From positions 7,393-71,392 of the forward strand of contig JAZRPC010000078.1 of NCBI GenBank assembly GCA_045649005.1: a stretch of 64,000 nucleotides of DNA, written 5' to 3'. This document shows, one piece after another, positions 5,469 through 39,586 of the stretch. The notes under the pieces were generated by a model, which did not search any database, was not told where the DNA came from, and was given only the letters and a program-made list of their open reading frames with translations. Within the stretch, counting starts at the first letter, position 1; each line of letters begins with the position of its first letter. The position numbers and the translations under genes are program-made. This DNA is from Acutalibacteraceae bacterium (lineage in GTDB: Bacteria; Bacillota; Clostridia; Oscillospirales; Acutalibacteraceae).

Positions 5469-7238
5469 ATGAGCAACGAAAACAAAAGCTCTATTGTCGA
5501 CAAAGGCAAAATGCTGTTCGGCGAAATCAAGGAGCATTGGAATACCCCTGCCGAGGGTAAATATGTTCCGTACAAAGAATATAAGGATGTTGTAATCGGT
5601 GTCGGTGCAAACTACACGGGCTCAAAAACTCTTGAGTATATCGGCTTCTGGTCAAGCTGCTTCCTCATTATGCACCACTACAAATTGCCGTATCTTACAT
5701 TCTCGGTTATCGGCCTTTTAAATATGCCTCTGGGTTATATTTCTGCCCTTATATGGTGGTATGTTTGCGATAACCTTGGCTTTTTACCGAAAAAGACCGA
5801 GAAAAAGGTATATCTTGTCTATGGTCTTATGATGGGGTTCGGCATTTCAACGCTATTGTTCGACTATTCAAGGCTATTCGACCAATCGGGCTCGTTTATC
5901 ACTATTCTCAACAGCTTTGAGGGTATGAATGCCACGGCGTGCTTTAAAACCTTTGGTACCCATTTTCTATATACAGGTTGGGTGGGTGCCCGTAATATAT
6001 TCTGGCGTAAGAAGCTGATTCCTAAATACGGCAGATACAAATACAGCCTCTATTGTGACGTTATACCGAAATGTGTAATGGTTATTCTTATAGGCTGGCT
6101 TCCTGTTTATAACATTGCAGACGTTGCAACACGTGTTTGGGTTGCAAACCTTCTTTTTGCTACATACAACGTGTTCGGCTTCGGTAACGTGCTTGAGGAA
6201 TGCTCAAAGAGAATAAGCCCCAATTTACAGGAAAGAATCCTTGTCAGAAGCTATCCTGTAAAAATATCACACATTTTCAACTCAATTCTTGCGATTATTC
6301 TCCCTGCAGTTGTCGGTATGCTCCGCCACGAATGGGCAGATATCAACTTCTATAGATTTGTTATCCCGATAACGTTCTGCATATCAGCAGCGTTCACAAT
6401 GGGTCTTGCGGGCAGAATTAAAGAAAGAATACCTCAACCGCCCATTGAAAAGAAGGTTCAGATTAAATTCTGGGACGGTATGCTGGGTGTTATGAAGAAT
6501 AAATACCTGCTTATTAAAACCGTTGTTGACCTTATTGATGCTTTGGGTAATGGTATGCTTCCTTTTGCAACAATTCTTTATTTCTACACGTTCCGTCTCA
6601 GCGGTCTGCCATACAGCCTTATTGTTGCACTCATATCCTTTGCGGGCACCCCGCCGGATCTGCTTTCCCCCTATTTCCTCAAGAAATTTTCATACAAACA
6701 GATTATGATTTTCTATCAGCTCAGCCGTGCTATCGGTAATGCCGTTATCGCTGTTGCGATGTGGACTCTTGGTGATAATCTTGCCCTTTGCGGAACAATC
6801 TGTATTGTAGTTCTCTTCTTTATGGAAATGACAAAGACCGTTCCAACAACCGCAGGTCATGATATGGGTGTGCGTATCAATGACTATCAAATGTATTTGT
6901 CGGGTGAACGTCTTGAAAGCTTTGCCGGTATTTTCGGCTGGTTTACAGGACCCATCACAACCTTTATTGGTCTTATAATCCCCATTTTCTTGTTGAAATA
7001 CGGCTTTAACAGCAACTGGGAAATCCTTTTCTTTGACGGTTCAAGACGAAATATTGTTGTTGTTCCCATTATTGTTGATGCAATCGGCTTCTTCCTTATG
7101 ACGATTCCGTATCTTTTCTGGGATTACGATAACAAAAAGCAGAACCTTGTTATGGAGGTTCTTAAACGCCGTGCCGAGGTAACGGAAAAAAAGGCACGGG
7201 AAGAGGGAGTCACCATTTCCGGTGGCTATAAAGGTTAA
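5469..7238 (+). CDS. polytopic membrane protein, distantly MFS/GPH-symporter-like
   Basis: 589 aa with 12 or more hydrophobic segments. The N-terminal region is arranged like glycoside-pentoside-hexuronide transporters. This is a weak family call. Confidence 0.5.
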   Translation: MSNENKSSIVDKGKMLFGEIKEHWNTPAEGKYVPYKEYKDVVIGVGANYTGSKTLEYIGFWSSCFLIMHHYKLPYLTFSVIGLLNMPLGYISALIWWYVCDNLGFLPKKTEKKVYLVYGLMMGFGISTLLFDYSRLFDQSGSFITILNSFEGMNATACFKTFGTHFLYTGWVGARNIFWRKKLIPKYGRYKYSLYCDVIPKCVMVILIGWLPVYNIADVATRVWVANLLFATYNVFGFGNVLEECSKRISPNLQERILVRSYPVKISHIFNSILAIILPAVVGMLRHEWADINFYRFVIPITFCISAAFTMGLAGRIKERIPQPPIEKKVQIKFWDGMLGVMKNKYLLIKTVVDLIDALGNGMLPFATILYFYTFRLSGLPYSLIVALISFAGTPPDLLSPYFLKKFSYKQIMIFYQLSRAIGNAVIAVAMWTLGDNLALCGTICIVVLFFMEMTKTVPTTAGHDMGVRINDYQMYLSGERLESFAGIFGWFTGPITTFIGLIIPIFLLKYGFNSNWEILFFDGSRRNIVVVPIIVDAIGFFLMTIPYLFWDYDNKKQNLVMEVLKRRAEVTEKKAREEGVTISGGYKG

Positions 7239-19723: not shown

Positions 19724-21445
19724 TTATTCTATTTCTATTGAATTGAGTATTTTGCAGGCAAGCTCTTTGCTGTCACCCTCGTATTCGTCACGAATATTGA
19801 TAGTAATTGAATAATCCATATAAACGTTTGAGCTCTTGCAGCAGTTTAAGGTGTAAATTGTTCCGCCGGGTGCTGCTGTTACGCTGAGAATGCCGTCAAC
19901 TTTTTCTGATTGATAAATATAATGTGTTGTGTTATCGCCGGTATAATAAACGGTCATTAAATAGATTGATATAAATGCGGCAGCTTCGTATTTGTCGCTT
20001 GTGTCAAATTCAGAAATCTTTGCAGAGAGCTTTTGCCAATCTAACTCAGTCCGGGGATAATAGCCCAGCTTTTCTTCTACAATATCACGCATCTGCTTGA
20101 GAGCTTTTTTGCTTGTTGCATCATATTCCTTATAATCGAAAGCGTCAAGTAAAAGATCATCTGTGCCACAGTAATCATAAATAACATTGCAATAAAGCAT
20201 CACAGAATCATCCTTGTTTGAATAAATCGTTGTGTCTTTCTTAATGCTTAAATCTGCAGGGATGTCACATGTTAGATTTTCTTCTGTTATTGTATAAACC
20301 TTTTCCGCATCGCTGAAAGCAACAGAGTAATTATCAAATTCTTTCAGCTCGTTGATATAGTAACCGTTGCTTTTTATGCTTTCAACTAAATCCTGAATAA
20401 TCTTTGATGAATATATGTTAAATGCAGAAAATGATATTGTAACTGCTAAAATAACAGCCACAACTCCGATAACGGAATTTTTCGCATTTACAGGTTCTTT
20501 GTTGGGGAGGGGTCTATAGTATTTTTCAAGGTACAGAGAGCATCTGTATATAAGCATGCTTTCAAATACAAATACAAAAGCAAAGCATGTGAAAAGAAAC
20601 ATCAGATTACCAAGGTGAAAAATGCGATAAGTAAAATCTGATACGGTTTCTTCGGCATCAATGATTGAAATCATGTTTTTGTAAAACAAAATATCGTACG
20701 TAAGAAGCGGGGCTGCAACTAAAAAACCGCAAAACAGCTCTTTAAACAGGTGCTTTTGGGGCTTGTATTTAAAAATGCAATCGCTGAAAACAAACAGCAA
20801 GCTTGCAAGAAACGCAACGCACCAAAGAACAAGCAAGAGTATCGTTGAATATCCCGCATAAATCATTGACGCATTGTGGCAAAGAATACCTGCCATAATT
20901 CCAACATAACCCTTCAAATAGGTCGATTTGCTGTGAATAAGGGCTTTTGTGGGAATGCTTTTGATTTTAAAAAGTGACCATAGAATTAAGACGCAGGGTA
21001 TTATAAAGGCTGTATAAAATATTGTAACGTTTGTTAAAGGCTTTTCTGTGATATTCAGAAATAAAAACCAAGCAGTCAAAGCGATAACGGCAAAACCCGC
21101 AACAAAAGTGATAAAAGCAAGGGCTTTGCAAGTAGTTATATCTGCCATGAAACGCTTGCGGTAGTATGCATAAAGTGTTTCGTAATTTGCTTGTTTGATG
21201 AAGCGTGAGCGATAAATGTTGCCGTTATCAGAAGCGATGTTGTATTTTAACATTTTTAAATTATCGGTTTCTGTTGTTGCACCGCACAAGGCTTCAAGAT
21301 ATGCAATTTGCTTGCGTGACGGCTCCTTCTGACCACACAAAAACAAATCAACGTTTTTTTCTTTCGTTTTCAAAAGTCCCGCAATATCAGCTTTTGAAAA
21401 CTTTCTTTCATCAATAAGATATTGAATTAAATTGCCGCAGTTCAT
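19724..21445 (-). CDS. hypothetical protein: N-terminal XRE-like HTH, polytopic membrane region, C-terminal extracytoplasmic domain
   Basis: 573 aa. The N-terminus (NLIQYLIDERKFSKADIAGLLKTKEKNVDLFLCGQKEPSRKQIAYLEALCG) resembles HTH_3. About 7 TM helices follow, then a ~230-aa soluble C-terminus. Confidence 0.5.
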   Translation of the reverse strand: MNCGNLIQYLIDERKFSKADIAGLLKTKEKNVDLFLCGQKEPSRKQIAYLEALCGATTETDNLKMLKYNIASDNGNIYRSRFIKQANYETLYAYYRKRFMADITTCKALAFITFVAGFAVIALTAWFLFLNITEKPLTNVTIFYTAFIIPCVLILWSLFKIKSIPTKALIHSKSTYLKGYVGIMAGILCHNASMIYAGYSTILLLVLWCVAFLASLLFVFSDCIFKYKPQKHLFKELFCGFLVAAPLLTYDILFYKNMISIIDAEETVSDFTYRIFHLGNLMFLFTCFAFVFVFESMLIYRCSLYLEKYYRPLPNKEPVNAKNSVIGVVAVILAVTISFSAFNIYSSKIIQDLVESIKSNGYYINELKEFDNYSVAFSDAEKVYTITEENLTCDIPADLSIKKDTTIYSNKDDSVMLYCNVIYDYCGTDDLLLDAFDYKEYDATSKKALKQMRDIVEEKLGYYPRTELDWQKLSAKISEFDTSDKYEAAAFISIYLMTVYYTGDNTTHYIYQSEKVDGILSVTAAPGGTIYTLNCCKSSNVYMDYSITINIRDEYEGDSKELACKILNSIEIE

Positions 21446-23293: not shown

Positions 23294-24121
23294 TTATTCA
23301 ATATTGAGTAAATTGGCTAAATTGTCATACAGAATTGATTTTAATTGAATATCTGACAGACCTAAATCAAATAAAAACTCCAATTCATCCTCTTGCTTCC
23401 ACATCGGAAAATCTGTTCCGAAAATCACTCTGTCTGTGCCGTAAAGGTTGATTATTTCTTTTGCTTTTTCTTTTGAAAGGGCATAGAAGCTGGAGCAGGT
23501 GTCAACGTAGAAATTTTTGTATTTGCACAAAATCTGCGGAGCAGAATCCCACACAGACCATCCGCCGAAATGGGCACCGATTATTGTCAAATCGGGGAAC
23601 ATTTTGAGAATTTTCTCAACTCTGTCGGGGTTGGAGTTATCAAATCTTGAATCACCCGTGTGCAAAAGCACAGGCAGGTGATGCTTGTTGCAGATTTCAA
23701 AAATTCTGATTACCTTGGGGTCGTCAACCTTGAAGCTCTGAATATCCGGATGAAGCTTGACACCCTTTAATCCAAGGTCGATAAGGTGCGTTACATCATC
23801 TTCAAGACTTTCACTTTCGGGGTGAAGTGAACCAAAGCCAATGAATCTTTCGGGGAATTGCCTGACCTCTTCTGCTATAAAGGTGTTTATGCTTTGTGCG
23901 TGGTGGGGAGTTGTTGCAACCGAGGTTACAAGACATTTTTCGACTCCAACCGAATCGCATTGGTTTATGAGTGCTTTTGCCGTGCCCACAAAACCGCAAC
24001 CGTTAATAACCCCGGATTCGCTTATCTGATAAAACGTGTCAATGCTGTCTGTTGCCTTTCGGGCGATTTTGTCGGGGAAAATGTGACAATGGGAATCTAT
24101 TACTTTGAAATTTTTATACAT
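23294..24121 (-). CDS. amidohydrolase-family metal-dependent TIM-barrel hydrolase
   Basis: 275 aa with the N-terminal metal motif IDSHCHIFP, later HTGD and GTDFP. This is the PF04909-like amidohydrolase_2 pattern. Confidence 0.75.
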   Translation of the reverse strand: MYKNFKVIDSHCHIFPDKIARKATDSIDTFYQISESGVINGCGFVGTAKALINQCDSVGVEKCLVTSVATTPHHAQSINTFIAEEVRQFPERFIGFGSLHPESESLEDDVTHLIDLGLKGVKLHPDIQSFKVDDPKVIRIFEICNKHHLPVLLHTGDSRFDNSNPDRVEKILKMFPDLTIIGAHFGGWSVWDSAPQILCKYKNFYVDTCSSFYALSKEKAKEIINLYGTDRVIFGTDFPMWKQEDELEFLFDLGLSDIQLKSILYDNLANLLNIE

Positions 24122-24180
24122 AGCTGAAACCTTCTTTGAAACACAAAAGTCGGGCAGAGCCCGACTTTTCGTTATGCTTT

Positions 24181-26652
24181 TTAAACGCTGCCTGTTTTTT
24201 GAGAATTGTATCTGTCGATTGATTCCTCTCGCATTTTGTATTTGAGAATTTTACCTGCAGCATTCATCGGGAATTCGTTTACAAACAAGAAATATTTAGG
24301 AACCTTGTGCTTAGCAATAGATGCATATCCGTATTCCTTCATTTCCTTTTCGTCGGCTGTTTCGCCCTTGTGAAGAATAATCCAAGCGCAGCATTCCTCA
24401 CCGTATTGCTCATCGGGAACGCCAACAACCTGAACGTCACGAACCTTGGGGTTGGTAAGGTAGAATTCCTCGATTTCACGTGGGTAGAGGTTTTCACCGC
24501 CACGGATAATCATATCCTTGAGTCTTCCCGTAACCTTGTAATATCCGTCGGGAGTTCTCATACAGATATCGCCGGAATGGAGCCAGCCTTCGCTGTCTAT
24601 TGCCTGTGCAGTTGCTTCGGGCATTTTGTAATAGCCCTTCATAATGTTAAAGCCACGGGCAACAAATTCACCGCTTTGACCGTCGGGGAGCTCTTCACCT
24701 GTTTCAGGGTCGATAATCTTACATTCAACACCGGGGAAGGCGCTGCCCACAGTTTCTACACGGTGGTCAAGGTCTTCGTTAACTTCGCCCATAGTACAGC
24801 CGGGCGAAGCCTCTGTCTGGCCGTAAACCGAAATAATCTCACGCATATTCATTTCAACCGAAGCACGGCGCATGAGGTCTGCGGGGCAGTTTGCACCTGC
24901 CATAATGCCCGTTCTCATATATGAGAAATCGGTTTTCGCAAAGTCAGGGTGGCTGAACATTGCAATAAACATTGTGGGAACACCGTTAAAGCAGGTGATT
25001 CGCTCGTCGTTGACACAAGCAAGTGATGACTTGGGTGAGAAATAGGGAATGGGGTAAAGCGTTCCTCCGTGAGTCATCATAGAGGTCATAGAAAGCACCA
25101 TTCCGAAGCAATGGAACATAGGCACCTGAATCATCATACGGTCAGCGGTTGACAAATCCATTCTGTCGCCGATTGTCTTGCCGTTGTTTATGATGTTGCG
25201 GTGTGTGAGCATAACACCCTTCGGGAAGCCTGTTGTACCTGAGGTGTATTGCATATTACAAACATCGTCAGGCTTTACGAGAGATGAGCGTCTGCGGACC
25301 TCTTCTCTCGGAATAAGGGAAGAGCGTGACAGCATCTGCTCCCAGGTAAGGCAACCGTCCATATCAAAGCCGACGGTTACAACGTTACGAAGGAAGGGGA
25401 GGTTTTTTGAATACAAGGGTGAGCCGGGCTCAAGTGTTTTAAGCTCGGGGCAAAGCTCCTCAATAATCTCCTTGTAGTTAATGTCCTTGCAATACTCAAT
25501 CATAACGAGAGTATGTGTGTCTGACTGTCTGAGCAAGTATTCAATTTCGTGAATCTTATATGCTGTGTTAACGGTAACAAGAACTGCACCGATTTTTGTT
25601 GTTGCCCAGAAGGTGATGAACCATTGCGGAACGTTGGTTGCCCAAATTGCAACGTGGTCACCCGCTTTTACACCAAGTGAAATCAAGGCGGCGGCACATT
25701 CGTCAACGTCACGGCGGAATTGCTCATAGGTTCTTGTGTAATCAAGAGTAGGGTACTTGAACGCATACTGGTCAGGATATTTTTCCGCCATTGTGTCAAG
25801 CACTTCTGAAAAGGTTGTGTCTATAACGTCGTACTTTTTCCATACAAACGTACCCGTTTTATCACGGTTGTAATACGCACGGTCATAAACCTTTTTTTCA
25901 CGCCCTAAAGAGGAAATGTAGTTTGTGAAGTGGGTGAGAACTATATCAGCATCGCTGATTTCTTCATTCCAGGCGGCACAGATAAAGCCCTCGTAATTAA
26001 GTGAAGAAAGAGAATTTAATAATTTTTCAACGTCTAAATCGCCTTCGCCGATTAAAACGGTTTTGCCGTCCTTCATATCTCCAAGGCGCACATATTTAAT
26101 GTATGCACCAAGATTTTTGATAGTGGTTTCAGCAGTTTCGCCCGCACCGAAATATGTCCACCTTACGTTCCACGATACACCGATAGCCGCAGAGGCAAAG
26201 TGATTGATAACACCGATTACGTTTTCGGTTTTTGCAAGGTAACCAACGGTTTCAAATAAAATATTGACGTCGCCCGTTTCCGCACGCTTGATTGCCGCTG
26301 ACATCTTTTCGTCGAGCACCTCGAAGGGTGTTTTGACTTCTGTGCGGACAATAACGTTTTCAATGCCCGATGCTGCCGCCATAGTAACGTATTTCTCAAT
26401 AAGCTCGGCAGTAGTTTCCTCGCTTTCAACAGGGGCAGGTATACGAAGTGCCGAAACAGAGAGGTTTCTGTTGACAAGCTTCCTTTTTGCATCGGCGATA
26501 CGGTCACGCCTTAATATGCTGTCGTGATGCGAGCTTCGTTCCTTTATGGCGTCGTAAATTTCAAAGCCTTCAAAACCGTAGTCAAAGGCATAACGACAGG
26601 TGTCAAGAAATGAAGCCCGACTTACGTTCTTGGTTGAAAATACAATTTTCAT
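24181..26652 (-). CDS. fusion protein: xylose-isomerase-like TIM barrel (N) plus AMP-dependent acyl-CoA synthetase/ligase (C)
   Basis: 823 aa. The first ~270 aa look like the sugar-phosphate isomerase/epimerase (AP_endonuc_2) fold. The remainder has adenylate-forming motifs YTSGTTGFPKGV, GQTE, GWLHSGD, DMIIRGGENLYPREIE and AGKILK. The GAGGAGG RBS lies inside the 3' end of the upstream gene. Confidence 0.8.
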   Translation of the reverse strand: MKIVFSTKNVSRASFLDTCRYAFDYGFEGFEIYDAIKERSSHHDSILRRDRIADAKRKLVNRNLSVSALRIPAPVESEETTAELIEKYVTMAAASGIENVIVRTEVKTPFEVLDEKMSAAIKRAETGDVNILFETVGYLAKTENVIGVINHFASAAIGVSWNVRWTYFGAGETAETTIKNLGAYIKYVRLGDMKDGKTVLIGEGDLDVEKLLNSLSSLNYEGFICAAWNEEISDADIVLTHFTNYISSLGREKKVYDRAYYNRDKTGTFVWKKYDVIDTTFSEVLDTMAEKYPDQYAFKYPTLDYTRTYEQFRRDVDECAAALISLGVKAGDHVAIWATNVPQWFITFWATTKIGAVLVTVNTAYKIHEIEYLLRQSDTHTLVMIEYCKDINYKEIIEELCPELKTLEPGSPLYSKNLPFLRNVVTVGFDMDGCLTWEQMLSRSSLIPREEVRRRSSLVKPDDVCNMQYTSGTTGFPKGVMLTHRNIINNGKTIGDRMDLSTADRMMIQVPMFHCFGMVLSMTSMMTHGGTLYPIPYFSPKSSLACVNDERITCFNGVPTMFIAMFSHPDFAKTDFSYMRTGIMAGANCPADLMRRASVEMNMREIISVYGQTEASPGCTMGEVNEDLDHRVETVGSAFPGVECKIIDPETGEELPDGQSGEFVARGFNIMKGYYKMPEATAQAIDSEGWLHSGDICMRTPDGYYKVTGRLKDMIIRGGENLYPREIEEFYLTNPKVRDVQVVGVPDEQYGEECCAWIILHKGETADEKEMKEYGYASIAKHKVPKYFLFVNEFPMNAAGKILKYKMREESIDRYNSQKTGSV

Positions 26653-26653
26653 T

Positions 26654-28042
26654 TTATGCCTCCTCGAATACGATTTTGTTCAATGCATTGATATATGCTC
26701 TGATGCTTGCGGCAACAATGTCGGTAGAGGTGCCGTTACCTGAATAAAGCTTGCCGTTGTTGCGAAGCCTTACAAGTGCAGAGCCGAGTGCTTCTTTTCC
26801 CTTAGTTACGGATTGCACCTGGAAATCATCAAGCTCGTAGTGGTGACCTATGCACTGCTCAATTGCACGGAAAACGGAGTCGATAGGACCGTCACCGTTA
26901 CTTACACCGCAAATGATTTCGTCGTTGCATTTCAAGGTAACCTGAGACATAGAGGCTGACATGTTACTGCTGGTTGTTGTATATGTTTCAAAGTGGTAGG
27001 TGGAGGGAGCCTGCATGGCTGAGCTTGCAATAATTGCCTCAAATTCCTTGTAGCCGACGGCACCCTTTCTTTCGCAAACCTGCTTAATAACCTTGTGAAC
27101 ATTGCCGATGTCAGAATCTGAAAGCTCGTAGCCTAACACAGCGGCTGCCTGGGCAATCTGCGCAATTGTGGAATCAGAGTCAATAAGAATCTTTTTACCT
27201 TCGCTTATTGAATTGTTGTTTTCATATTCATCGTGGTTAATGCTTGATAACATATCGTCAATGCTTGCGTGGATTTTTGTGTTATTAAGTTTAAATTCGG
27301 CATTAACCTGCTTGCCGCAAGCATTTATTGCGTCGGAAATCTCACCTGTGAGAAGTGTGTTTTTGCCCGCCATTGCACATTTAATGCCGTCAGCACCGCT
27401 TTTGATTGCAGAAAAAGCACATGCAACTGCCATATTGATGCGGTCAGATACCTGCACGTAAACAGGGATGCTTACGGCTTCCTTTACGCTTGAAACCAAT
27501 TCAGCAATATCATCGGGGGTTGAAGCGCCTGCATCATCGCAGATTGTTACCATGCCGGCACCGCACTGCTCAGCCTCTTTAACTGCGGCAATAAGGAAGT
27601 CTTTATCTGCTCTTGTTGCATCAAGTGCAGAAAACTCAACGTCAGAGCAAAGAGCTTTTGCTTCTTTGATGAGCTCTTTGATTCTGTCGAGCATTTTTGC
27701 TTGCTTTACGTGGTATGTGTATTCCATCTGAATGGTGGATACGGGAAGCTCAACCTGAAGGCGGGGCTTCTGAGCATCCTTGATGCAATCCCAAGCGCAC
27801 GAAACGTCTTCGGTTGTGAACCCTACGGGGATTGCGAAAACAGCATTCTGCACGTTCTGGGCGATTGTTTTATAAATAATTTTATCTTCACGAGGGGATT
27901 TTATTGCAGGGATTTCAATAACGTCAACACCGATTTTGTCGGCACAGGCTGCGATTGCTGACTTTTCACGGAATAGCAAGGATACAGCTCTGTCCTCTGA
28001 AATCTTTTTAAGTGTGATGTCTGAAATAATAATTTTTTTCAT
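26654..28042 (-). CDS. 2-isopropylmalate synthase-like protein lacking the catalytic metal ligands but retaining the LeuA C-terminal regulatory domain
   Basis: This is an HMGL/LeuA-like TIM barrel, but DTTLRDGEQ is replaced by DITLKKISE and HCHNDLGLAV by QVSDRINMAV. The C-terminus (GDGPIDSVFRAIEQ...DIVAASIRAYINALNKI) matches the LeuA dimerisation/allosteric domain. The likely start is the second ATG (28042), with proper RBS spacing; the ORF track extends to 28051. Confidence 0.7.
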   Translation of the reverse strand: MKKIIISDITLKKISEDRAVSLLFREKSAIAACADKIGVDVIEIPAIKSPREDKIIYKTIAQNVQNAVFAIPVGFTTEDVSCAWDCIKDAQKPRLQVELPVSTIQMEYTYHVKQAKMLDRIKELIKEAKALCSDVEFSALDATRADKDFLIAAVKEAEQCGAGMVTICDDAGASTPDDIAELVSSVKEAVSIPVYVQVSDRINMAVACAFSAIKSGADGIKCAMAGKNTLLTGEISDAINACGKQVNAEFKLNNTKIHASIDDMLSSINHDEYENNNSISEGKKILIDSDSTIAQIAQAAAVLGYELSDSDIGNVHKVIKQVCERKGAVGYKEFEAIIASSAMQAPSTYHFETYTTTSSNMSASMSQVTLKCNDEIICGVSNGDGPIDSVFRAIEQCIGHHYELDDFQVQSVTKGKEALGSALVRLRNNGKLYSGNGTSTDIVAASIRAYINALNKIVFEEA

Positions 28043-28082
28043 TTTGCTCATCCTTTCAGCAGATAAAATATAATGTAATATA

Positions 28083-28371
28083 AATAGCCAATAAAAAAGC
28101 CCTGAGATTCGAAAATCTCAGGGACGAATTTTTAAAAAATCCGTGGTACCACCCCGGTTACTGACAAAGGTCAGTCACTCATTAGGACTCTTAATTAAGT
28201 CTGTAGCCATGGTAACGGGGCCGCCGTAACTCCTTACACGAGGTGTCGGTTGGGGAGCTCTGCTCCGGAACGAGACCGAATTTTTGCAACGCACCGACTC
28301 ACAGCAACCGTCGGCTCTCTGAAACGTGAAACCAAAAACACGTAATTCCTTCATCGCATTTGAAAAATATT
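28083..28371 (-). promoter_or_regulatory. T-box leader, specifier read as CUC (Leu)
   Basis: Read on the minus strand: K-turn GCGAUGAAGGAA...UUCCGGAGCA and the AGAGAG bulge. The distal loop is GGUUGCUGUGAG. Specifier CUC followed by a purine immediately precedes the lower helix (28272-28274). The T-box sequence is GGGGUGGUACCACGG (28141-28155). The terminator is cccugagauu/aaucucaggg plus U6 (28083-28113). Confidence 0.85.
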
Positions 28372-28377
28372 GAAAGA

Positions 28378-28406
28378 ATGATAACATTCTTTGGTTTCTT
28401 TGTCAA
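28378..28406 (-). promoter_or_regulatory. sigma-A promoter of the Leu T-box operon
   Basis: On the minus strand: TTGACA (28406-28401), 17-nt spacer, TATCAT (28383-28378). Confidence 0.6.
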
Positions 28407-28484: not shown

Positions 28485-28766
28485 TGAAAATATCACAAAT
28501 AAAAGCTGTGACGAAGACGGTTGAAAATTACAACTTCCAGAGAGTCGGCGGTTGCTGCGAGCCGATAGCTTGTGTTTTCAAAACCTATCACTTCTGAGCT
28601 GAAGGTCCGAAAAATTTTTTTAGTAGGCGCCTTCCGAGAATGCTGCGTTAGTGCAACGGGGTTGTTGGACTCCTGAGTGGCAATTTTATTGCAATTTGAG
28701 TGGTACCGCGGATTAATTTTCGTCTCAAAGTAAAACCAAAGGGTTTTGTTTTGGGGCGTTTTTTAT
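28485..28766 (+). promoter_or_regulatory. T-box leader, specifier read as AUC (Ile)
   Basis: K-turn GCUGUGACGAAG...CUUCUGAGC, AGAGAG, distal loop GGUUGCUGCGA. AUC followed by A lies directly 5' of the lower-helix strand CUUC (28587-28590). The T-box sequence is AAUUUGAGUGGUACCGCG (28694-28710). The terminator stem is 28721-28758 plus U6. Confidence 0.85.
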
Positions 28767-28807
28767 TTGTGAGTTTTTGATAATGCTTTATGAAGGAAGG
28801 AATCATT

Positions 28808-31081
28808 ATGCAGAACAATTCAGTTACAAACAAGCTTGCAGAGGTCGCAAAGCGTATTGGTGAACTCCGTGACATTTACGGCTTTTCTGTTAAGGAAATG
28901 GCTGAAAAAACCGAACTCACATTGGAGGAATATCTCTCTTTTGAACAAGCAAAAGAGGATTTGCCCTTCTCTTTTATTCACAAATGTGCTCTTGCTTTTG
29001 ACGTTGAAATAACAGACCTTCTTGAGGGTCAGAGTGCAAAGCTCACAACATACAACGTAACACGTAGGGGAAAGGGTCAGACAACAGCTAATGAAGATGG
29101 TATTCTGATTCAGAATCTTGCACCTAAGTTCAGAAATAAGCTTGCAAATCCCTATTGGGTTAAATATGAATACAGAAGCGAGCTTCAGTCTATGCCCATT
29201 GAGCTTGCAACTCACTCGGGTCAGGAGTTTGACCTTGTTATCAAGGGCTCCCTTAAAGTTCAGATTGGTGAGCATACAGAAATTCTTCACGAGGGTGACA
29301 GCATTTTCTACAAAAGCTCAATTCCTCACGGTATGATCGCTGTTAATGGCGAGGATTGTCTTTTTCTTGCTATGGTTATGGCTGAGGATGAAGAGGTTGC
29401 AGACACAAATATGAACGCTGTCAGCGTTGCAGACACCACGAAGAGAATCCCTCTCATCTGCGACAAATTCATTAAAACAACCGAGGATGAGAACGGTGTT
29501 TGCACCGGTATAGATTTCGAAAACGAAGATGAATTCAACTTTGCTTTCGACGTTGTTGACGAAATCGGCAGACAGTATCCTGAAAAGCTTGCTATGCTTC
29601 ATATTGCAGACGATATGACTGAGCACCGTTTTACCTTCAAGGATATTAAAGAGGGTTCATCACAGGCGGCAAACTATTTCAAATCCTTGGGCATCAAAAA
29701 GGGTGACAGAGTTCTTCTTGTTCTCAAGCGTAACTATCAGTTCTGGTTGGCAATTCTCGGTCTTCATAAGCTTGGTGCAGTTGCAATCCCCGCAACAAAT
29801 CAGCTTGTTGTTCATGATTATGAATACCGCTTCAATGCCGCAGGTGTTTCCGCTGTTGTTGTAACCGCCGACGGTGTTGCAACCGATTACATCGACGAGG
29901 CTCAGAAAAATTGCCCCACTCTTAAAACAAAAATCGTTGCCAACGGCAAAAAAGAGGGTTGGCATTGCTTTGATGAAGAATATGCTCTCTTCAGCCGCCG
30001 ATTTGTCCGTGCTGAGGATGCACCCTGTGGTAACGACCCCATGATTATGTTCTTCACATCCGGCACAACAGGCTACCCGAAAATCGCAACCCATTCCCAT
30101 AAATATCCCTTGGGTCATTTTCTTACAGCTAAATACTGGCATTGTGTTGAACGTGACGGAATCCATTTCACAATTTCCGAAACGGGTTGGGGTAAGGCTC
30201 TTTGGGGCAAGCTCTACGGACAATGGCTTTGCGAGGGTGCAGTTTTCGTTTATGACTTTGAACGCTTTGATGCTTCAAAGATTCTTCCTATGTTTGCAAA
30301 GTACAATATCACAACCTTCTGTGCACCCCCCACAATGTACAGAATGCTTATAAAACAAGATATTTCACAGTATGATTTGTCATCAATAAAGCACGCCACA
30401 ACAGCGGGTGAGGCTCTTAACCCCGAGGTTTTCAAGCAGTTTGAAAAAGCAACAGGTCTCAGAATCCACGAGGGCTTCGGTCAGACTGAAACAACTCTTT
30501 CAATCGCAAACTTCAAAGGCACTAAAATTAAAATCGGAGCTATGGGTCAACCCACACCTCTTTATGATATCGATATAGTTGACCCCGACGGCAGACCCGT
30601 TGCCGACGGCGAAACAGGCGAAATTGTTGTTCATACTGACGGCAAGATTCCCTGCGGTCTTTTCCTTGGTTATTATAACGACCAAGAGAAAACAGACGAG
30701 GTGTGGCACGATGGTCTTTACCACACAGGTGACACCGCATGGCGTGATGAGGACGGTTATCTCTGGTACGTTGGTCGTGTCGATGACGTTATCAAATCAT
30801 CCGGCTACCGCATCGGACCATTCGAAATCGAAAATGTTATTATGGAGCTCCCTTATGTTCTTGAGTGTGGTGTTTCTGCCGCTCCCGATGAGGTGAGGGG
30901 TCAGGTTGTTAAAGCAAGCATTGTTCTGACCCCCGGCACAGAAGGAACAGAAGAACTCAAGAAAGAGATTCAGAAATATGTAAAGGAGCATACAGCACCT
31001 TACAAATATCCCAGAATCGTTGTTTTCCGTGATGAGCTTCCTAAGACAATCAGCGGCAAAATCATAAGAAATAAGCTTTGA
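28808..31081 (+). CDS. fusion protein: XRE-type HTH plus cupin plus AMP-forming (medium-chain type) acyl-CoA synthetase
   Basis: ATG at 28808 follows a GGAAGG RBS. The HTH_3-like N-terminus is LRDIYGFSVKEMAEKTELTLEEYLSFE. The cupin motif is HSGQEFDLVIKGSLKVQIGEH...GDSIFY...PHG. The ACS body has FFTSGTTGYPK, GFGQTE, YHTGD, GRVDDVIKSSGYRIGPFEIE and PKTISGKI. Confidence 0.85.
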   Translation: MQNNSVTNKLAEVAKRIGELRDIYGFSVKEMAEKTELTLEEYLSFEQAKEDLPFSFIHKCALAFDVEITDLLEGQSAKLTTYNVTRRGKGQTTANEDGILIQNLAPKFRNKLANPYWVKYEYRSELQSMPIELATHSGQEFDLVIKGSLKVQIGEHTEILHEGDSIFYKSSIPHGMIAVNGEDCLFLAMVMAEDEEVADTNMNAVSVADTTKRIPLICDKFIKTTEDENGVCTGIDFENEDEFNFAFDVVDEIGRQYPEKLAMLHIADDMTEHRFTFKDIKEGSSQAANYFKSLGIKKGDRVLLVLKRNYQFWLAILGLHKLGAVAIPATNQLVVHDYEYRFNAAGVSAVVVTADGVATDYIDEAQKNCPTLKTKIVANGKKEGWHCFDEEYALFSRRFVRAEDAPCGNDPMIMFFTSGTTGYPKIATHSHKYPLGHFLTAKYWHCVERDGIHFTISETGWGKALWGKLYGQWLCEGAVFVYDFERFDASKILPMFAKYNITTFCAPPTMYRMLIKQDISQYDLSSIKHATTAGEALNPEVFKQFEKATGLRIHEGFGQTETTLSIANFKGTKIKIGAMGQPTPLYDIDIVDPDGRPVADGETGEIVVHTDGKIPCGLFLGYYNDQEKTDEVWHDGLYHTGDTAWRDEDGYLWYVGRVDDVIKSSGYRIGPFEIENVIMELPYVLECGVSAAPDEVRGQVVKASIVLTPGTEGTEELKKEIQKYVKEHTAPYKYPRIVVFRDELPKTISGKIIRNKL

Positions 31082-31239: not shown

Positions 31240-31509
31240 TTGAATAAAAAGGCGTTGAAGAAAAGGGCGCAATCATTTCACCTTGCAGAGAAGTGGCGGT
31301 TGGTGCAAGCCACAGGTTGAGAGATTGATGTTTGTAGTTTCCGAGCCGGGAGGAAGAACAGCTTTCGCTTAGTAGAACCTCTCCGTGATTGCTGCGTAAA
31401 GGCATAGAAGTTGTTGGACTTCGAGAGAGGCAGTTTAAACTGCAATTTGAGTGGTACCGCGGGTATATTTTTACTCGTCTCAAAGAATATCTTTGGGACG
31501 AGTTTTTTA
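31240..31509 (+). promoter_or_regulatory. T-box leader, specifier read as GUA (Val)
   Basis: K-turn GGCGUUGAAGAAA...UUUCCGAGCC, AGAGA, distal loop GGUUGGUGCAA. GUA followed by G lies directly 5' of the lower-helix strand UUUC (31334-31337). The T-box sequence is AAUUUGAGUGGUACCGCG (31445-31461). The terminator is cucgucucaaag/cuuugggacgag (31474-31502) plus U6. Confidence 0.8.
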
Positions 31510-31539
31510 TTGTGTCCCTACAAAAACGGAGGAAAGATT

Positions 31540-33834
31540 ATGGACAAAATCACCGGTCTTGATTTTAAAATCAAGGAGATGGCTGCCCGTATTCGGGAAT
31601 TGCGTGAAATTGAGGGCTACACCACAGCCGAGATGGCTTCAAAAACGGGTGTTGCCGAAAGTGAATACATTGCTTGCGAAAATGGTGAAAGCGATCTTAA
31701 CTTTGCATTCATTTATCGTTGTGCACTTGCGTTCAATGTTGATGTTTCAAGCATCATAGAGGGTAGCACACCCAAGCTCACAAACTACGTTTTCACAAAA
31801 GCGGGTAAAGGGCAGAAGATTGAAAAAGCTCACGGAATGACTTATTTCAACCTTGCTTCAAAATTCAAAAATAAAATTGCCGAGCCTCTTTTTGTTGAGG
31901 CTACATACAGCGAAGAAAATCAGAATAAAGATATTGAGCTCACTTCTCACGACGGTCAGGAGCTTGACATTGTTGTTGAAGGTAAGCTGAAGGTTCAGGT
32001 GGGTGAGCACTCAGAGATTCTCGGCCCCGGTGACAGCATCTATTATGATTCTCTCACCCCTCACGGTATGATTGCTGTTGACGGTAAGGATTGTACCTTC
32101 TACGCTATCGTTCTTAATCCGTCGGGTGAGCCTATCCCTGAGCTTCAGCACGTGAAGACTGAGGAGTATAAAGAACCTGTCAAGGTTAAAGAGGATAAAA
32201 AAGAAAGAATTTATCATAAATTCATTGATGTTGAGCGTAACGAAAAAGGTACACCCACATCAATCAAATTTAAAAATACAGAAAACTTCAACTTTGCATA
32301 TGACCTTATTGATGCTCTCGCAGACAGGGAGCCCGATAAATTGGCAATGCTTCATATTGCAAGAGATAAGACCGAAAGAAGATTCACTTTTAAGGATATG
32401 AAGCGTGGCTCCGCTCAGGCGGCGAACTACTTTAAATCCTTGGGCATCAAAAAGGGCGACAGGGTTATGCTCATACTCAAGCGCCATTACCAGTATTGGT
32501 TTGCAATGCTCGGTCTTAATAAATTGGGTGCTATCGGTATACCTGCTCCCAACCAGTTGCAGGAGCACGACCTTGAATATCGTTTCCAGGCTGCGGGTAT
32601 CAAGGCAATTATCTGCACAACAGACGGCGACGTTGCAAATCAGGTTGATATGGCGGCTGAAAAGTGCCCCGACCTTAAAATCAAAATCGCAGTTGGCGAA
32701 GAACGTGACGGTTGGAGAAATTACGACGAAGAAAGTAAGCTCTTCAGCTCCCATTACGAAAGGGGCGAAAATGCTCCTGGTGGCGACGATTTGATGCTTA
32801 TGTTCTTCACATCGGGCACAACAGGCTACCCCAAAATTGCCGCACATAGCTACACATACGCTCTCGGTCATTTCCACACAGCCAAATATTGGCATAATGT
32901 TGACCCCGACGGCCTTCATTTCACAATTTCTGACACAGGCTGGGCAAAGTCTATGTGGGGCAAATTCTACGGCCAATGGCTTTGCGAAGCGGCTCTTTTC
33001 GTTTACGACTTTGACCGCTTTGATGCAGCAGACATTCTTCCCATGTTTGCAAAACACAACATCACAACGTTCTGTGCACCGCCTACAATGCTCAGAATGA
33101 TGATAAAACAAGATATTTCAAAATACGATTTCTCTTCCGTTAAGCATATGACAACAGCGGGCGAGGCTCTTAACCCCGAGGTTTATCGTCAATTCGAAAA
33201 GGCAACAGGCCTCCAGATTCTCGAAGGCTTTGGTCAGACTGAAAGCACAATGATTATCGGTAATATGACAGGCGCACCCCACAAAATCGGTTCTATGGGT
33301 AAACCTGCTCCCATTTATGATGTTTGCCTTGTTGATGCAGACGGCAACAAAGTTAATGTCGGTGAAAATGGTGAAATCGTTGTCAACGTAAAAGATGGCG
33401 CTCCCTGTGGTCTCTTCAAGGGCTACTATAACGACGAAGAAAAAACCAAAGAGGTTTGGCACGACGGCTACTATCATACAGGTGACGTTGCCTGGATGGA
33501 TGAAGACGGCTTCTATTGGTATGTTGGTCGTGTGGATGACGTTATTAAATCCTCAGGCTATCGTATAGGTCCATTTGAAATCGAAAGCGTTATTATGGAG
33601 CTTCCCTACGTTCTTGAGTGCGGCGTTTCTGCTGCTCCTGATGAAGTCAGAGGACAGGTTGTTAAAGCAAGCATAGTTCTTGTTCCCGGAACAGAGGGTA
33701 CGGAAGAACTCAAAAAAGAGATTCAACAGTACGTTAAGGAGAAAACTGCTCCTTATAAATATCCCCGAATCGTTGTATTCCGTGATGAATTGCCAAAAAC
33801 AACCAGTGGTAAGATTCAGCGAAATAAATTATAA
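31540..33834 (+). CDS. fusion protein: XRE-type HTH plus cupin plus AMP-forming acyl-CoA synthetase (tandem paralog of 28808-31081)
   Basis: ATG at 31540 follows a GGAGGAAAG RBS, and the domain order is the same. The last 101 residues differ from the paralog at only 6 positions. In a 56-residue HTH segment, 26 residues are identical. Confidence 0.85.
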   Translation: MDKITGLDFKIKEMAARIRELREIEGYTTAEMASKTGVAESEYIACENGESDLNFAFIYRCALAFNVDVSSIIEGSTPKLTNYVFTKAGKGQKIEKAHGMTYFNLASKFKNKIAEPLFVEATYSEENQNKDIELTSHDGQELDIVVEGKLKVQVGEHSEILGPGDSIYYDSLTPHGMIAVDGKDCTFYAIVLNPSGEPIPELQHVKTEEYKEPVKVKEDKKERIYHKFIDVERNEKGTPTSIKFKNTENFNFAYDLIDALADREPDKLAMLHIARDKTERRFTFKDMKRGSAQAANYFKSLGIKKGDRVMLILKRHYQYWFAMLGLNKLGAIGIPAPNQLQEHDLEYRFQAAGIKAIICTTDGDVANQVDMAAEKCPDLKIKIAVGEERDGWRNYDEESKLFSSHYERGENAPGGDDLMLMFFTSGTTGYPKIAAHSYTYALGHFHTAKYWHNVDPDGLHFTISDTGWAKSMWGKFYGQWLCEAALFVYDFDRFDAADILPMFAKHNITTFCAPPTMLRMMIKQDISKYDFSSVKHMTTAGEALNPEVYRQFEKATGLQILEGFGQTESTMIIGNMTGAPHKIGSMGKPAPIYDVCLVDADGNKVNVGENGEIVVNVKDGAPCGLFKGYYNDEEKTKEVWHDGYYHTGDVAWMDEDGFYWYVGRVDDVIKSSGYRIGPFEIESVIMELPYVLECGVSAAPDEVRGQVVKASIVLVPGTEGTEELKKEIQQYVKEKTAPYKYPRIVVFRDELPKTTSGKIQRNKL

Positions 33835-33857
33835 TGTATAAAAAGAAGGTGAAAAAG

Positions 33858-34520
33858 ATGCAAAGTAAACGAATGACCCTTTTTGCAGGGCACTACGGTA
33901 GCGGCAAAACAAATATTGCCGTTAACTACGCTTTGTATCTTAAAAGCCTTGGCGAAAACGTCGTTATTGCTGACCTTGATATCGTTAATCCCTATTTCAG
34001 AACACGAGACAGTCTTGAGGATTTGAACAAAGCAGGAATCAAATTGATTTCCTCAGCGTTCGCAAACTCAAACGTTGATTTACCTGCTTTGCCGCAGGAT
34101 GTTTATTCTCTTCTTGACAAACGTGAAGAAAAGGCGATAATGGATATTGGCGGTGATGACCGTGGTGCTTACGCTTTGGGTAGATATGCAGACGCTATTA
34201 AAGATGAAAACGACTATGAAATGCTTTTCGTTTTCAATAAATATCGTCCGCTAACACCCGATGCAGAATCTGCTTTTGAAATAATGCAGGAAATTGAAGC
34301 GGCGTGCAAGGTTAAATTCACCGCAATAGTCAATAACTCCAACCTTGGTGAAAGCACCACGGCAGAGGATGTTTTAAATTCGGTTGACAGTGCCGAAAAA
34401 TTGTCTGAATTAACAGGCTTGCCTGTTAAAATGACAACTGTCACAGAAAATTTAGTTAATAATCTCAACGGAAAAATTTCAAATCTGTTTCCGCTGACTT
34501 TACAAAAAAAGATAATTTAG
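33858..34520 (+). CDS. P-loop NTPase (MinD/CooC-like SIMIBI fold), function unknown
   Basis: Walker A GHYGSGKT and Walker-B-like VVIADLD. The ATG at 33858 follows a GAAGGTG RBS (track ORF starts at 33834). Confidence 0.6.
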   Translation: MQSKRMTLFAGHYGSGKTNIAVNYALYLKSLGENVVIADLDIVNPYFRTRDSLEDLNKAGIKLISSAFANSNVDLPALPQDVYSLLDKREEKAIMDIGGDDRGAYALGRYADAIKDENDYEMLFVFNKYRPLTPDAESAFEIMQEIEAACKVKFTAIVNNSNLGESTTAEDVLNSVDSAEKLSELTGLPVKMTTVTENLVNNLNGKISNLFPLTLQKKII

Positions 34521-34531
34521 GAGGCAGAAAA

Positions 34532-34738
34532 ATGGCAAAAGTAACATTCGCAGAAAATGTTTGCAAGGGTTGCGGTTTGTGCGTAACTGCTTGTCCCAAG
34601 AAAATTGTGGAACTTGATTCTGCAAAGCTTAACGCAAAAGGTCATCATCCTGCACATTGTATCGATGATAGCAAGTGTATCGGTTGCGCATTTTGTGCAA
34701 CAATGTGCCCCGACTGCGCTATAACTGTTGAAAGGTAA
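34532..34738 (+). CDS. 2x[4Fe-4S] ferredoxin, delta-subunit type of 2-oxoacid:ferredoxin oxidoreductases
   Basis: 68 aa with two CxxCxxCxxxCP motifs (CKGCGLCVTACP, CIGCAFCATMCP). It lies immediately upstream of a KorA/VorB-like start. Confidence 0.8.
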   Translation: MAKVTFAENVCKGCGLCVTACPKKIVELDSAKLNAKGHHPAHCIDDSKCIGCAFCATMCPDCAITVER

Positions 34739-34748
34739 GGTGAAATAA

Positions 34749-35348
34749 ATGGGTGAGAAAGTTTTAATGAAAGGTAATGAGGCTATCGCCGAGGCTGCAA
34801 TCAGAGCAGGTTGTATGCATTATTTCGGTTACCCCATTACTCCCCAGACAGAAATTGCCGCATATATGGCAAAAAGAATGCCCAAAGTTGGTGGCGGTCA
34901 GGAGCAGAACGTTCACTCCGGCACGGAGGCAACCCCCGCAATATTCTCATTCGGTGCTGCCGCAAATGCCGCAGGCGACGTGGCTGCAAACTCTGCCTAT
35001 GTTGCAGAACTAAAAAAACAATTGTTGCAGGGCATAGAAAATATATCTTGCGTAACAATAAACTCTCCGGAGGATGCAATCCCCTATATTCTCAACATTT
35101 CAATCCTCGGCCTACCCAGCCAGCCCATTGTTAATTTTATGAGTGACAAGGGCATTTACATTTCCGCAGGCTCTGCTTGCAAAATGGGTCACAGAAGCCC
35201 TGTGCTCACAGCTATGGGTCTTTCGCCCGAGGTTACAGACAGCGCTGTGAGAATCAGCCTGAGCAGATACAACACACCTGAAGAGATTGATTATCTAATA
35301 AGCGCAATTACAGAAGCCGCTCAAAAATACGGCAAAAAACAAAGGTGA
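34749..35348 (+). pseudogene. chimeric ORF: N-terminal ~50 aa of a 2-oxoacid:ferredoxin oxidoreductase alpha subunit fused in frame to the C-terminal ~150 aa of cysteine desulfurase NifS/IscS
   Basis: Residues 1-49 ([43 protein letters not shown]) are a typical KorA/VorB N-terminus. From [14 protein letters not shown] onward the sequence is NifS-like ([20 protein letters not shown]...[15 protein letters not shown]). The junction is at GGT GGC GGT (34890-34898). The PLP-lysine region of NifS and all TPP/CoA domains of the oxidoreductase are absent. Confidence 0.75.
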
Positions 35349-38096: not shown

Positions 38097-38107
38097 GAGG
38101 TGTGAAC

Positions 38108-39586
38108 ATGAAAATCAAAGCATTTTCATTTGAACAAAACAGCTACGCTCTTGCCCCCGTTAAGCAGAGCGTTACTGAAAACATCACTGAAAGCGGTATG
38201 TTTTTCGAAAGTTTTTCGGATGCAAACGTCCTCTTCAACGAAATATCCGCCGCTTTATCCTCCAGCGATGCAATCCTTTTGGGTGTTGAAAGCGAGCTTT
38301 TCCTCAAATTCAAGCCCATTCTCATAAAAGCATTCAGCTTTACCCCCGCATACAGCGAAAAAATCGATAAAAAAATCGGTAGCAAAATAACCGATCCCAA
38401 ATTAAGAAAAGCCCACACACTCGTGCCCGACGAGTGCTCCGAGCTTCTTTCGGATGACGGTCTTTTCAGCGGCTTCTACGTTAAATCACAGGAGCAATAT
38501 ATTGTTGTGTTCCCCCTTCTTGAGGATGCACTCCCCCATATGCTCACAGAATCCGACCTTCCCTTCTTTAAAAGCCACGCAAAAAGCGTTTCGGTGCCCG
38601 ACGACGTTGAAATCGACCCCGAATCATTATCACAGGCAGAGGCTATTGTTGCAAAGCTCATAAAAAACGATATAAAGCTTGCAATCCCCTCCACCCCCGC
38701 TGCAAAGCTTCTCAAAGAAGAAATTAAAAATTGCCCCAACAACGAAAACATCGTTTTGTTTACACCCTTTGTTAACGACGAGGGCATCAGCGATCCCAAG
38801 GAATATGCCGCCCAGCTTGCAAAGGGCGCAATGGATTTGAGAAGCACCGAGCTCGGCGCCACAATCTCCAACATCTTCCGTGAAAAGAAGGGTGAAACGG
38901 TTACAAACTATTATTCATTCATAGCAGTTGCAACCGCCGACAAAATCGTTGTTAAAAAGCTTTTTGCCGACACGGGCGAAAACGTTGATAACCTCATAGC
39001 AGAGGCAACAACCGAATTATACGCTATGATGGATAAATACCTTGACGAGGTTATTTTCAAGAAAACAGCCACCGATGAAGAAAAAGCAAAATATGAGCAG
39101 GCTCTTATCGAGGCAGAATATCAGGCAGATGTGCGTCCCTCCGCCTCAATCGGTAAAAAGGGAACAATCGCCGCTATCATAATACTTGCGATTGCGGTTA
39201 TAGTTTGCGTTATTCTCGGCTTTAAATTCGGCGGGTATTTCGTCAAGCCCTCCGACGCACCCGAGGCTCAGTCGCTTCAGTCAGGCGGCACAACCGCAGG
39301 CACCGTTCCGGCTATCCCCGAAAACACAGAGCCCGACTACACAGAATATGATTCCGAGCCCGGCTCGACTACGGATATTTTCGATATTGACCCCACAGAA
39401 AACCTTATCCCCGTGCCCAATACCGACAGACCCGTAATTAACTACACACCCAACAACAATCAGGGCTCAGGCAACAACGAAAAGCCTAAGGAAGACGAAA
39501 CAGAAAAACCAAGCGAAACAGAGAAAGAGACAACCACCGAGCCCAAGGAAGAGCCCACAGAGGACTTTGAGGGTGCTGAGTGGTAA
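38108..39586 (+). CDS. hypothetical protein with one TM near the C-terminus and a Pro/Thr/Glu-rich tail
   Basis: ATG at 38108 follows AAGAGGTG. The TM is IAAIIILAIAVIVCVILGF, and the tail is low-complexity (ETEKPSETEKETTTEPKEEPTED). I recognise no family. Confidence 0.55.
   Translation: MKIKAFSFEQNSYALAPVKQSVTENITESGMFFESFSDANVLFNEISAALSSSDAILLGVESELFLKFKPILIKAFSFTPAYSEKIDKKIGSKITDPKLRKAHTLVPDECSELLSDDGLFSGFYVKSQEQYIVVFPLLEDALPHMLTESDLPFFKSHAKSVSVPDDVEIDPESLSQAEAIVAKLIKNDIKLAIPSTPAAKLLKEEIKNCPNNENIVLFTPFVNDEGISDPKEYAAQLAKGAMDLRSTELGATISNIFREKKGETVTNYYSFIAVATADKIVVKKLFADTGENVDNLIAEATTELYAMMDKYLDEVIFKKTATDEEKAKYEQALIEAEYQADVRPSASIGKKGTIAAIIILAIAVIVCVILGFKFGGYFVKPSDAPEAQSLQSGGTTAGTVPAIPENTEPDYTEYDSEPGSTTDIFDIDPTENLIPVPNTDRPVINYTPNNNQGSGNNEKPKEDETEKPSETEKETTTEPKEEPTEDFEGAEW

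Follow-up and report, generated by a model that had tools for sequence, protein, structure and literature searches.

In Firmicutes, leucine synthesis is under two-layer control, in which a leucine-specific (Leu) T-box on the ilv-leu operon is combined with a leucine-inhibited 2-isopropylmalate synthase (LeuA). Reuse of a catalytically dead paralogue as a regulatory subunit is known from HisZ, a histidyl-tRNA-synthetase paralogue that regulates short-form HisG (ATP phosphoribosyltransferase). The short form of LeuA (TIGR00973/PRK00915), represented by Escherichia coli LeuA and by the solved structures 3ewb, 3rmj and 3eeg, is built from a DRE-TIM barrel, subdomains I and II and a LeuA_dimer regulatory domain. 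Several LeuA-derived enzymes, namely methylthioalkylmalate synthase (6e1j), isobutylmalate synthase and apple citramalate synthase, have lost the regulatory domain (10.1101/2021.09.28.462264, PMC7826400). The present analysis concerns a LeuA-like gene on the minus strand (26654..28051) of a 64,000-nucleotide stretch, called the window below, which comprises positions 7,393 to 71,392 of contig JAZRPC010000078.1 in the genome of an Acutalibacteraceae bacterium (GenBank GCA_045649005.1). Its product, referred to here as pseudo-LeuA, has lost the catalytic residues of LeuA and is under strong selection; the gene stands behind a Leu T-box, is paired with the gene of an acyl-coenzyme A (CoA) ligase fusion, and lies in a cluster of acyl-CoA ligase and 2-oxoacid:ferredoxin oxidoreductase genes.

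Like short-form LeuA, pseudo-LeuA contains a DRE-TIM barrel, subdomain II and a LeuA_dimer domain; unlike it, the protein is ~45 residues shorter, lacks the metal ligands, RDGEQ, GERAGN and subdomain I, and has a regulatory domain that is more conserved than its barrel. The LeuA-derived synthases named above are its mirror image, having kept catalysis and dropped feedback, whereas pseudo-LeuA has done the reverse. With canonical ilv-leu control the locus has two things in common, a Leu T-box and an operon whose first gene product carries a LeuA regulatory domain, but the controlled enzyme here would be a salvage acyl-CoA ligase and the regulation would act in trans. HisZ provides the nearest parallel as a dead paralogue of an enzyme that recognizes the pathway amino acid, and a comparable allosteric role in trans is proposed for pseudo-LeuA; fold and partner differ, and the complex and effector binding of pseudo-LeuA are part of the proposal. 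No description of the pseudo-LeuA family or of the module was found in the literature.

The pseudo-LeuA gene encodes 465 amino acids (aa), or 462 aa from its probable start. A Shine-Dalgarno sequence (GAAAGGA) ends at 28051, a second ATG (M4) is located at 28042 and homologues are mostly 462 aa long; ATG 28042 is therefore the probable start. In Pfam, HMGL-like (PF00682) matched residues 7-229 (E 2e-31) and LeuA_dimer (PF08502) matched residues 335-460 (E 3e-31, 108 bits, model positions 5-130 of 131). The barrel (aa 5-235) is encoded at 27347..28039 (-) and the allosteric/dimerization domain (aa 335-460) at 26672..27049 (-). An AlphaFold2 model built from a 102-sequence alignment was confident (predicted local distance difference test 91.6); in Foldseek its barrel matched 3ewb with a root-mean-square deviation of 1.5 Å and a TM score of 0.92, and the full-length model aligned with Mycobacterium tuberculosis LeuA. 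An earlier reading of the DNA letters without database searches, called the sequence-only reading here, had aligned the product with LeuA along its whole length and had proposed profile comparison, mapping onto a LeuA structure and structure prediction of the protein alone as checks; these recovered both LeuA domains, a LeuA-like fold and the motif losses detailed next. The NCBIfam LeuA equivalogs scored the protein at 190-256 bits against cut-offs of 517-748, the top score of 256 bits lying below its own cut-off of 532, and NCBIfam held no model dedicated to this family.

Catalytic motifs were compared in three independent alignments, made to the solved LeuA barrels 3ewb/3rmj/3eeg, to four true LeuAs and to E. 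coli LeuA. They show the following replacements: DTTLRDGEQ has become DITLKKISE, TSDxH has become VSTIQ, EDATR has become LDATR, PDTVG has become CDDAG and HCHNDLG has become QVSDRIN. Further along the protein, a 4-residue deletion has removed ERAGN from NGIGERAGN, ~40 residues spanning HESGIHQDG...YEIM (subdomain I, with the catalytic His) are deleted, and LGKHSGR reads LIDSDST, with DSDS in place of HSGR. The metal site thus has Lys in place of the Asp of LRDGEQ and QVS in place of HCH; among substrate and catalytic residues, Arg, Glu and Gln of RDGEQ, His of TSDxH, Glu of EDATR, Thr of PDTVG and the GERAGN segment are gone. The loss of the DRE-TIM signature claimed in the sequence-only reading was thereby confirmed and extended. 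Its statement that all metal and substrate ligands are lost holds for the metal Asp/His/His and for RDGEQ but is as a whole a slight overstatement, as D11, T13, S105, D144, R147 and D172 are still common to LeuA. That reading had also allowed that the catalytic Asp/His/His might be present in shifted positions; no shifted or alternative set was found in any of the three alignments. From this residue loss pseudo-LeuA is predicted to be a catalytically dead LeuA paralogue, and a protein that fails LeuA's defining catalytic features should not be named isopropylmalate synthase.

Relatives were collected from a scan of one genome per species, in which 322 genomes contained a relative; counts for close relatives refer to the best 80 of the 322. 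These 80 (76-93% identity) are metagenome-assembled genomes from ruminant and herbivore guts, labelled Acutalibacteraceae, Congzhengia, Clostridia or Eubacteriales, and the open reading frame (ORF) is full-length and intact in every one of these closest species-level orthologues. The ratio of nonsynonymous to synonymous substitution (dN/dS) against the window gene was 0.09 in the barrel, 0.09 in the middle region, 0.019 in the regulatory domain and 0.07 overall. Among 1.84 billion cluster representatives searched exhaustively and without a profile, ~115 full-length proteins (450-480 aa, 31-50% identity) ranked ahead of the first true LeuAs, and HxH and GEQ are missing from all of them. The intact ORFs, the low dN/dS and the depth of the family argue together that the gene is not a decaying pseudogene, an outcome that the sequence-only reading had left open should the degenerate form prove unconserved in relatives. 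Family members are numerous: a single 90% cluster comprises 5796 of them, and the commonest sequence in that cluster has index entries in 1147 blocks of the contig collection, among them human-gut metagenome assemblies. Where NCBI records give a name at all, which few do, the family member is 'hypothetical protein' and its partner 'AMP-binding protein'.

Entropy was computed over 99 non-redundant family members. The old catalytic columns have 2.5-3.7 bits of entropy, near unconstrained, with 3.62 bits at the metal Asp, 3.43 at the first His, 2.50 at the second His and 3.26 at the Glu of EDATR, while PVSxVQMEY, DATRA[DE] and CDxAG are kept across the family barrels. Pairwise identity within the family is 0.32 in the barrel and 0.56 in the regulatory domain, against 0.43 and 0.37, respectively, in nine true LeuAs. 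The pattern of constraint is thus reversed relative to true LeuAs, and the regulatory domain is the most conserved part of the protein.

The sequence-only reading had described the C-terminal LeuA domain as well preserved, in agreement with the PF08502 score and with the occurrence of GDGPIDSVFRAIEQ and DIVAASIRAYINALNKI, which match the regulatory domain of true LeuAs. The motifs GDGPxDA and GxGxSTDIxxAS..AY..ALNK are common to the family and to true LeuA regulatory domains. Over the 99 members, G386, G388, G438, G440 and D444 never vary, and in the AlphaFold2 secondary structure the invariant glycines form loops before both helices of the beta-beta-beta-alpha units. The leucine bound by M. 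tuberculosis LeuA sits where the regulatory domains meet in the dimer: a hydrophobic pocket receives it there, and the N-termini of two helices flank its carboxylate (PMC11057210). G423 of pseudo-LeuA, conserved in 98 of the 99 members, aligns to G462 of E. coli LeuA, and G462D is an allele used for removing leucine feedback (PMC6345581). In isolation, the LeuA-type regulatory domain acts as a self-contained amino-acid sensor (PMC13381585). By profile score the domain is LeuA-type (NF002086, 256 bits, best stretch residues 286-463) rather than citramalate-synthase-type (TIGR00977, 71 bits); sequence searches matched M. tuberculosis LeuA and the regulatory domain of Leptospira citramalate synthase only weakly. 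The assessment of the effector site uses the G462 equivalence and the loop invariants, circumstantial features by which the site looks kept. The constraint on the domain, the invariant Gly loops and G423 are consistent with a sensing role, without amounting to proof of one.

Transcription of the gene probably starts from a sigma-70-type promoter at 28378..28406 (-) (TTGACA, 17-nt spacer, TG-TATCAT; 11/12 matches, with a TG extension). It is followed by a T-box leader at 28117..28363 (-), matched by Rfam RF00230 over model positions 1-219 at 102 bits against a gathering score of 93, with the specifier CUC (Leu) at 28274-28272. The T-box sequence GGGUGGUACCACGG precedes an intrinsic terminator (28093..28123, (-)) with a 10-bp stem and a U run, so that a terminator/antiterminator switch is present. 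CUC is kept in three diverged leader lineages comprising 78 relatives, with one CUU and one CCC as exceptions, and all 12 of the T-boxes found upstream in distant relatives carry CUG, CUC or CUA, each a Leu codon.

The partner gene (24181..26652, (-)) encodes an 823-aa fusion of a xylose-isomerase-like TIM barrel (aa 20-229) with an acyl-CoA ligase (aa 287-801) whose ligase part retains every adenylation motif. The stop codon of pseudo-LeuA lies 1 nt from the ATG of the fusion gene and GAGGAGG occurs within the last pseudo-LeuA codons, and translational coupling is therefore plausible. The fusion is directly downstream in 74 of the 80 close loci, the remainder being mostly short with too little downstream DNA. 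In 85 diverse metagenomic loci, drawn in part from a scan with an 11-sequence family alignment, the fusion was next in every locus having downstream DNA, down to 32% identity. The junctions are 1-nt gaps, 4-nt overlaps or a few bases at most. The Leu T-box (CUC in the window) and the coupling to an acyl-CoA ligase fusion, both reported in the sequence-only reading, accordingly stand in the window and in near and distant relatives, and the survey of co-occurrence that it had suggested shows the two genes together. A homologue search with the fusion itself returned only relatives of at least 89% identity, called 'AMP-binding protein' where named.

The TIM domain of the fusion (25864-26652, (-)) has WNVRW, YVRLGD and CAAW in the window clade, where most of the wider fusion family retains WDxHH, HVHLRD and SLEW. 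Aligned to xylose-isomerase-like barrels such as MJ1311 (3wqo), the latter motifs fall on the metal-site residues D, H, H and E. Because the TIM metal motif is lost too, both barrels of the module look inactive in the window clade. The idea that both are dead throughout the family was rejected, as most lineages keep D/H/H/E in the TIM domain of the ligase. The gene pair has outlasted the loss of this motif, and the conserved role of the TIM domain would therefore be structural.

Ruminococci are among the gut anaerobes that require branched-chain fatty acids and carboxylate isovalerate to leucine. Formation of leucine from isovalerate by carboxylation followed by amination is established rumen physiology (PMC7356843). 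Divergent from the Leu operon, a second T-box with the specifier AUC (Ile) lies at 28499..28730 (+) (Rfam, 105.9 bits; AUC kept in relatives) and precedes the gene of a first acyl-CoA synthetase with XRE-type helix-turn-helix (HTH) and cupin domains (28790..31081, (+)). A third T-box at 31246..31485 (+) has the specifier GUA (Val), likewise kept in relatives, and scored 92.1 bits (E 8e-21), 1 bit under the gathering score of 93. It heads the gene of a second HTH-cupin-acyl-CoA synthetase (31537..33834, (+); Pfam), that of a 228-aa P-loop (CbiA/ParA-like) protein (33834..34520, (+)), which accompanies the oxidoreductase in relatives, and at 34532..34896 (+) the delta subunit of a 2-oxoacid:ferredoxin oxidoreductase (34532-34738) with the opening ~50 codons of the alpha-subunit gene, which breaks off at 34896. 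The two HTH-cupin ligases are paralogues of 763-765 aa and MbcS/Macs-like, with E 9e-185 to Macs of Methanosarcina acetivorans (PDB 3etc) and 439 bits to the MbcS model; MbcS and Macs act on branched short-chain acids, for example 2-methylbutyrate (PMC10455477, PMC10026030). A DNA-binding domain on a ligase is unusual, and these proteins may be sensors or trigger enzymes.

In many lineages (for example loci L111, L113, L159, L162 and L171) the pseudo-LeuA/fusion pair is co-stranded with one or two HTH-cupin ligases, the P-loop protein, oxidoreductase delta/alpha/beta/gamma and a class IV (branched-chain) aminotransferase, and in one lineage the cluster adjoins Rnf. The full ligase, oxidoreductase and aminotransferase set occurs in relatives; the window itself is without the aminotransferase. 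Macs/MbcS-like ligases, a four-subunit oxidoreductase and an aminotransferase are also the features shared with reductive carboxylation in the rumen together with MbcS of Staphylococcus aureus and Macs of M. acetivorans. There are thus three T-boxes in the window, one per ligase: Leu for pseudo-LeuA and the TIM-ligase, Ile for the first HTH-cupin ligase and Val for the second. Read most simply, each branched-chain acid would have a ligase of its own, induced when the cognate tRNA is uncharged, and the cluster looks like a route from branched short-chain fatty acids to leucine, isoleucine and valine. Elsewhere in the 64-kb window no leu or ilv genes were present. A cluster from branched-chain fatty acids to branched-chain amino acids under Leu, Ile and Val T-boxes, a context missed by the sequence-only reading, gives the idea of leucine sensing its logic. 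No gene-level account of such a pathway with a LeuA-like protein, a TIM-ligase fusion, HTH-cupin extensions or a triple T-box was found in the literature.

We give an even chance to the proposal that, in a route from fatty acid to leucine, pseudo-LeuA senses leucine as the partner of an isovalerate-CoA ligase. On this proposal the fusion ligase would most likely convert isovalerate to isovaleryl-CoA. Uncharged tRNA-Leu would cause readthrough of the CUC T-box, and pseudo-LeuA and the fusion would be made. Rising free leucine would then bind at the dimer interface of the pseudo-LeuA regulatory domains, and the degenerate barrel and the retained subdomain II would relay the change to the ligase, probably via its N-terminal TIM domain, throttling it. 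The T-box would report the charging of tRNA-Leu at the level of transcription and the regulatory-domain dimer would report free leucine, so that the two-layer control of the canonical pathway would have been copied for a salvage route. Four elements of this scheme we infer: that leucine is bound, that the two proteins form a physical complex, that the effect is inhibitory and not activating, and that the substrate is isovalerate.

Several points weigh against the sensing proposal. It is drawn from sequence and context rather than from binding, interaction or kinetics, and it offers no detailed reason why purifying selection still acts on the degenerate barrel (dN/dS 0.09). It also ignores any chemistry that the TIM domain may have of its own where the D/H/H/E motif is kept. 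The nearest solved ligases to the fusion act on feruloyl, malonyl and long-chain substrates, and the oxidoreductase genes in the window break off at 34896. The pocket side chains are unmappable, the sole full-length LeuA structure (M. tuberculosis) being too distant for sequence alignment, and conservation of the regulatory domain could mark a protein-protein interface instead of a ligand site. Such an interface is what a non-sensing scaffold would use, with pseudo-LeuA stabilizing the ligase or docking it to the oxidoreductase to channel isovaleryl-CoA and the regulatory domain acting as the contact surface. An invariable, translationally coupled gene pair, a barrel that remains under selection and the presence of oxidoreductase genes directly upstream in some lineages would all agree with this, as would the higher conservation of the regulatory domain here than among true LeuAs (0.56 vs 0.37), which suggests an added interface constraint. 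We nevertheless regard a scaffold as unlikely, since the invariant residues are the Gly-rich helix-cap loops and the G462 equivalent, which are tied to effector binding or response and would be unexpected at a surface patch; nor would a scaffold need a LeuA-derived domain specifically in a Leu-controlled operon.

If the domain does sense, its effector might be 2-oxoisocaproate, isovalerate, Ile or Val, or leucine might activate or re-target the ligase. Evolution has given some regulatory domains of the LeuA type a different specificity, for instance for Ile in citramalate synthase (PMC13381585), and the pocket side chains could not be mapped by alignment; the LeuA-type score of the domain, far above its citramalate-synthase-type score, and the Leu codons of the upstream T-boxes, with one CCC exception among the 78 relatives, make a different effector or mode of action distinctly improbable. 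Poorer still are the prospects of a neofunctionalized barrel, which by itself or with the TIM domain of the ligase would act on isovaleryl-CoA or 2-oxoisocaproate, either without a metal or with help from the partner, or would hold a CoA ester. Such a function would account for the dN/dS of the barrel and for the conservation of PVSxVQMEY, DATRA[DE] and CDxAG, and the partner TIM domain does keep its metal motif in most lineages. The conserved residues, however, are inherited from the LeuA core (D11, T13, S105, MEY, K116, D144, R147, D172), no new conserved polar site was seen in the family, and positions lining the old active site are near maximally variable. Subdomain I, which in LeuA closes the active site and binds CoA, is deleted, and the window clade has lost the metal motif of the partner as well. 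At least one public source calls a member of the family (P0437, for example) '2-isopropylmalate synthase', as would be right for an ordinary LeuA with shifted catalytic residues; that possibility is very remote given three alignments without an alternative Asp/His/His and scores far under every LeuA equivalog cut-off, and the same very low probability attaches to a decaying pseudogene, against which stand 80 of 80 intact ORFs, an overall dN/dS of 0.07 and a deep family.

Taken more broadly, the sensing proposal would mean that a LeuA regulatory domain has been exported in a gutted shell to control a non-homologous ligase in trans, and that the cluster defines the genes and regulation by which Clostridia of the rumen and the human gut convert branched-chain fatty acids into branched-chain amino acids. 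For this wider claim the chances seem to us somewhat less than even. If it is true, each branched-chain amino acid would have its own riboswitch, ligase and sensor module, and pseudo-LeuA would be the first LeuA-type regulatory domain, as far as could be found, to act on an enzyme that does not carry out a Claisen condensation. It would also be a clean new example of a pseudoenzyme put to use as an allosteric subunit, of which few are known. The cluster offers a concrete candidate gene set and regulatory design for a pathway long known and genetically unassigned. As the family is abundant and a member has been named '2-isopropylmalate synthase', automated reconstructions may wrongly infer the canonical leucine pathway or leucine prototrophy.

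Downstream of the fusion gene and separated from it by a hairpin (24145-24169), an amidohydrolase_2 family gene at 23294..24121 (-) may close the operon. Of the 80 close relatives, 47 have it downstream; it is not universal in distant loci, in some of which it lies upstream on the opposite strand. The 228-aa P-loop protein gave weak CbiA/ParA/Zeta-toxin matches and no NCBIfam match; its gene directly precedes oxidoreductase delta here, as it does in the majority of relatives with the gene in their cluster, and the protein is possibly a maturation factor. At the end of the cluster, the ORF at 34749-35348 (+) is chimeric, joining ~50 residues of oxidoreductase alpha (POR_N) to the C-terminal third of a NifS-like class V aminotransferase, and is followed by thiI. 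The breakpoint is at 34896/34897: homology to 11 relatives ends exactly at 34896, and relatives such as L001 carry the full delta-alpha-beta-gamma set. The break is either a true deletion or rearrangement or an assembly join. Apart from this, the window consists of ordinary clostridial chromosome, with genes such as spoIIIA, hrcA-dnaK-dnaJ, trk and pgm. Within it, the ORFs at 5469-7238 (+) (589 aa) and 38102-39586 (+) (494 aa) had no Pfam match at E ≤1e-5, and that at 19724-21445 (-) (573 aa) had none at E 1e-3.

Candidate Rosetta-stone fusions to LeuA_dimer (P0242, P0255, P0248 and P0251) were considered among the search results and rejected, as their N-terminal parts are truncated fragments of unrelated families. 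These four and P0264, all metagenome-derived, join MFS, response regulator, TGT, MBOAT or 7TMR-HD fragments to a near-identical LeuA_dimer tail, and are most likely assembly chimeras that became cluster representatives.

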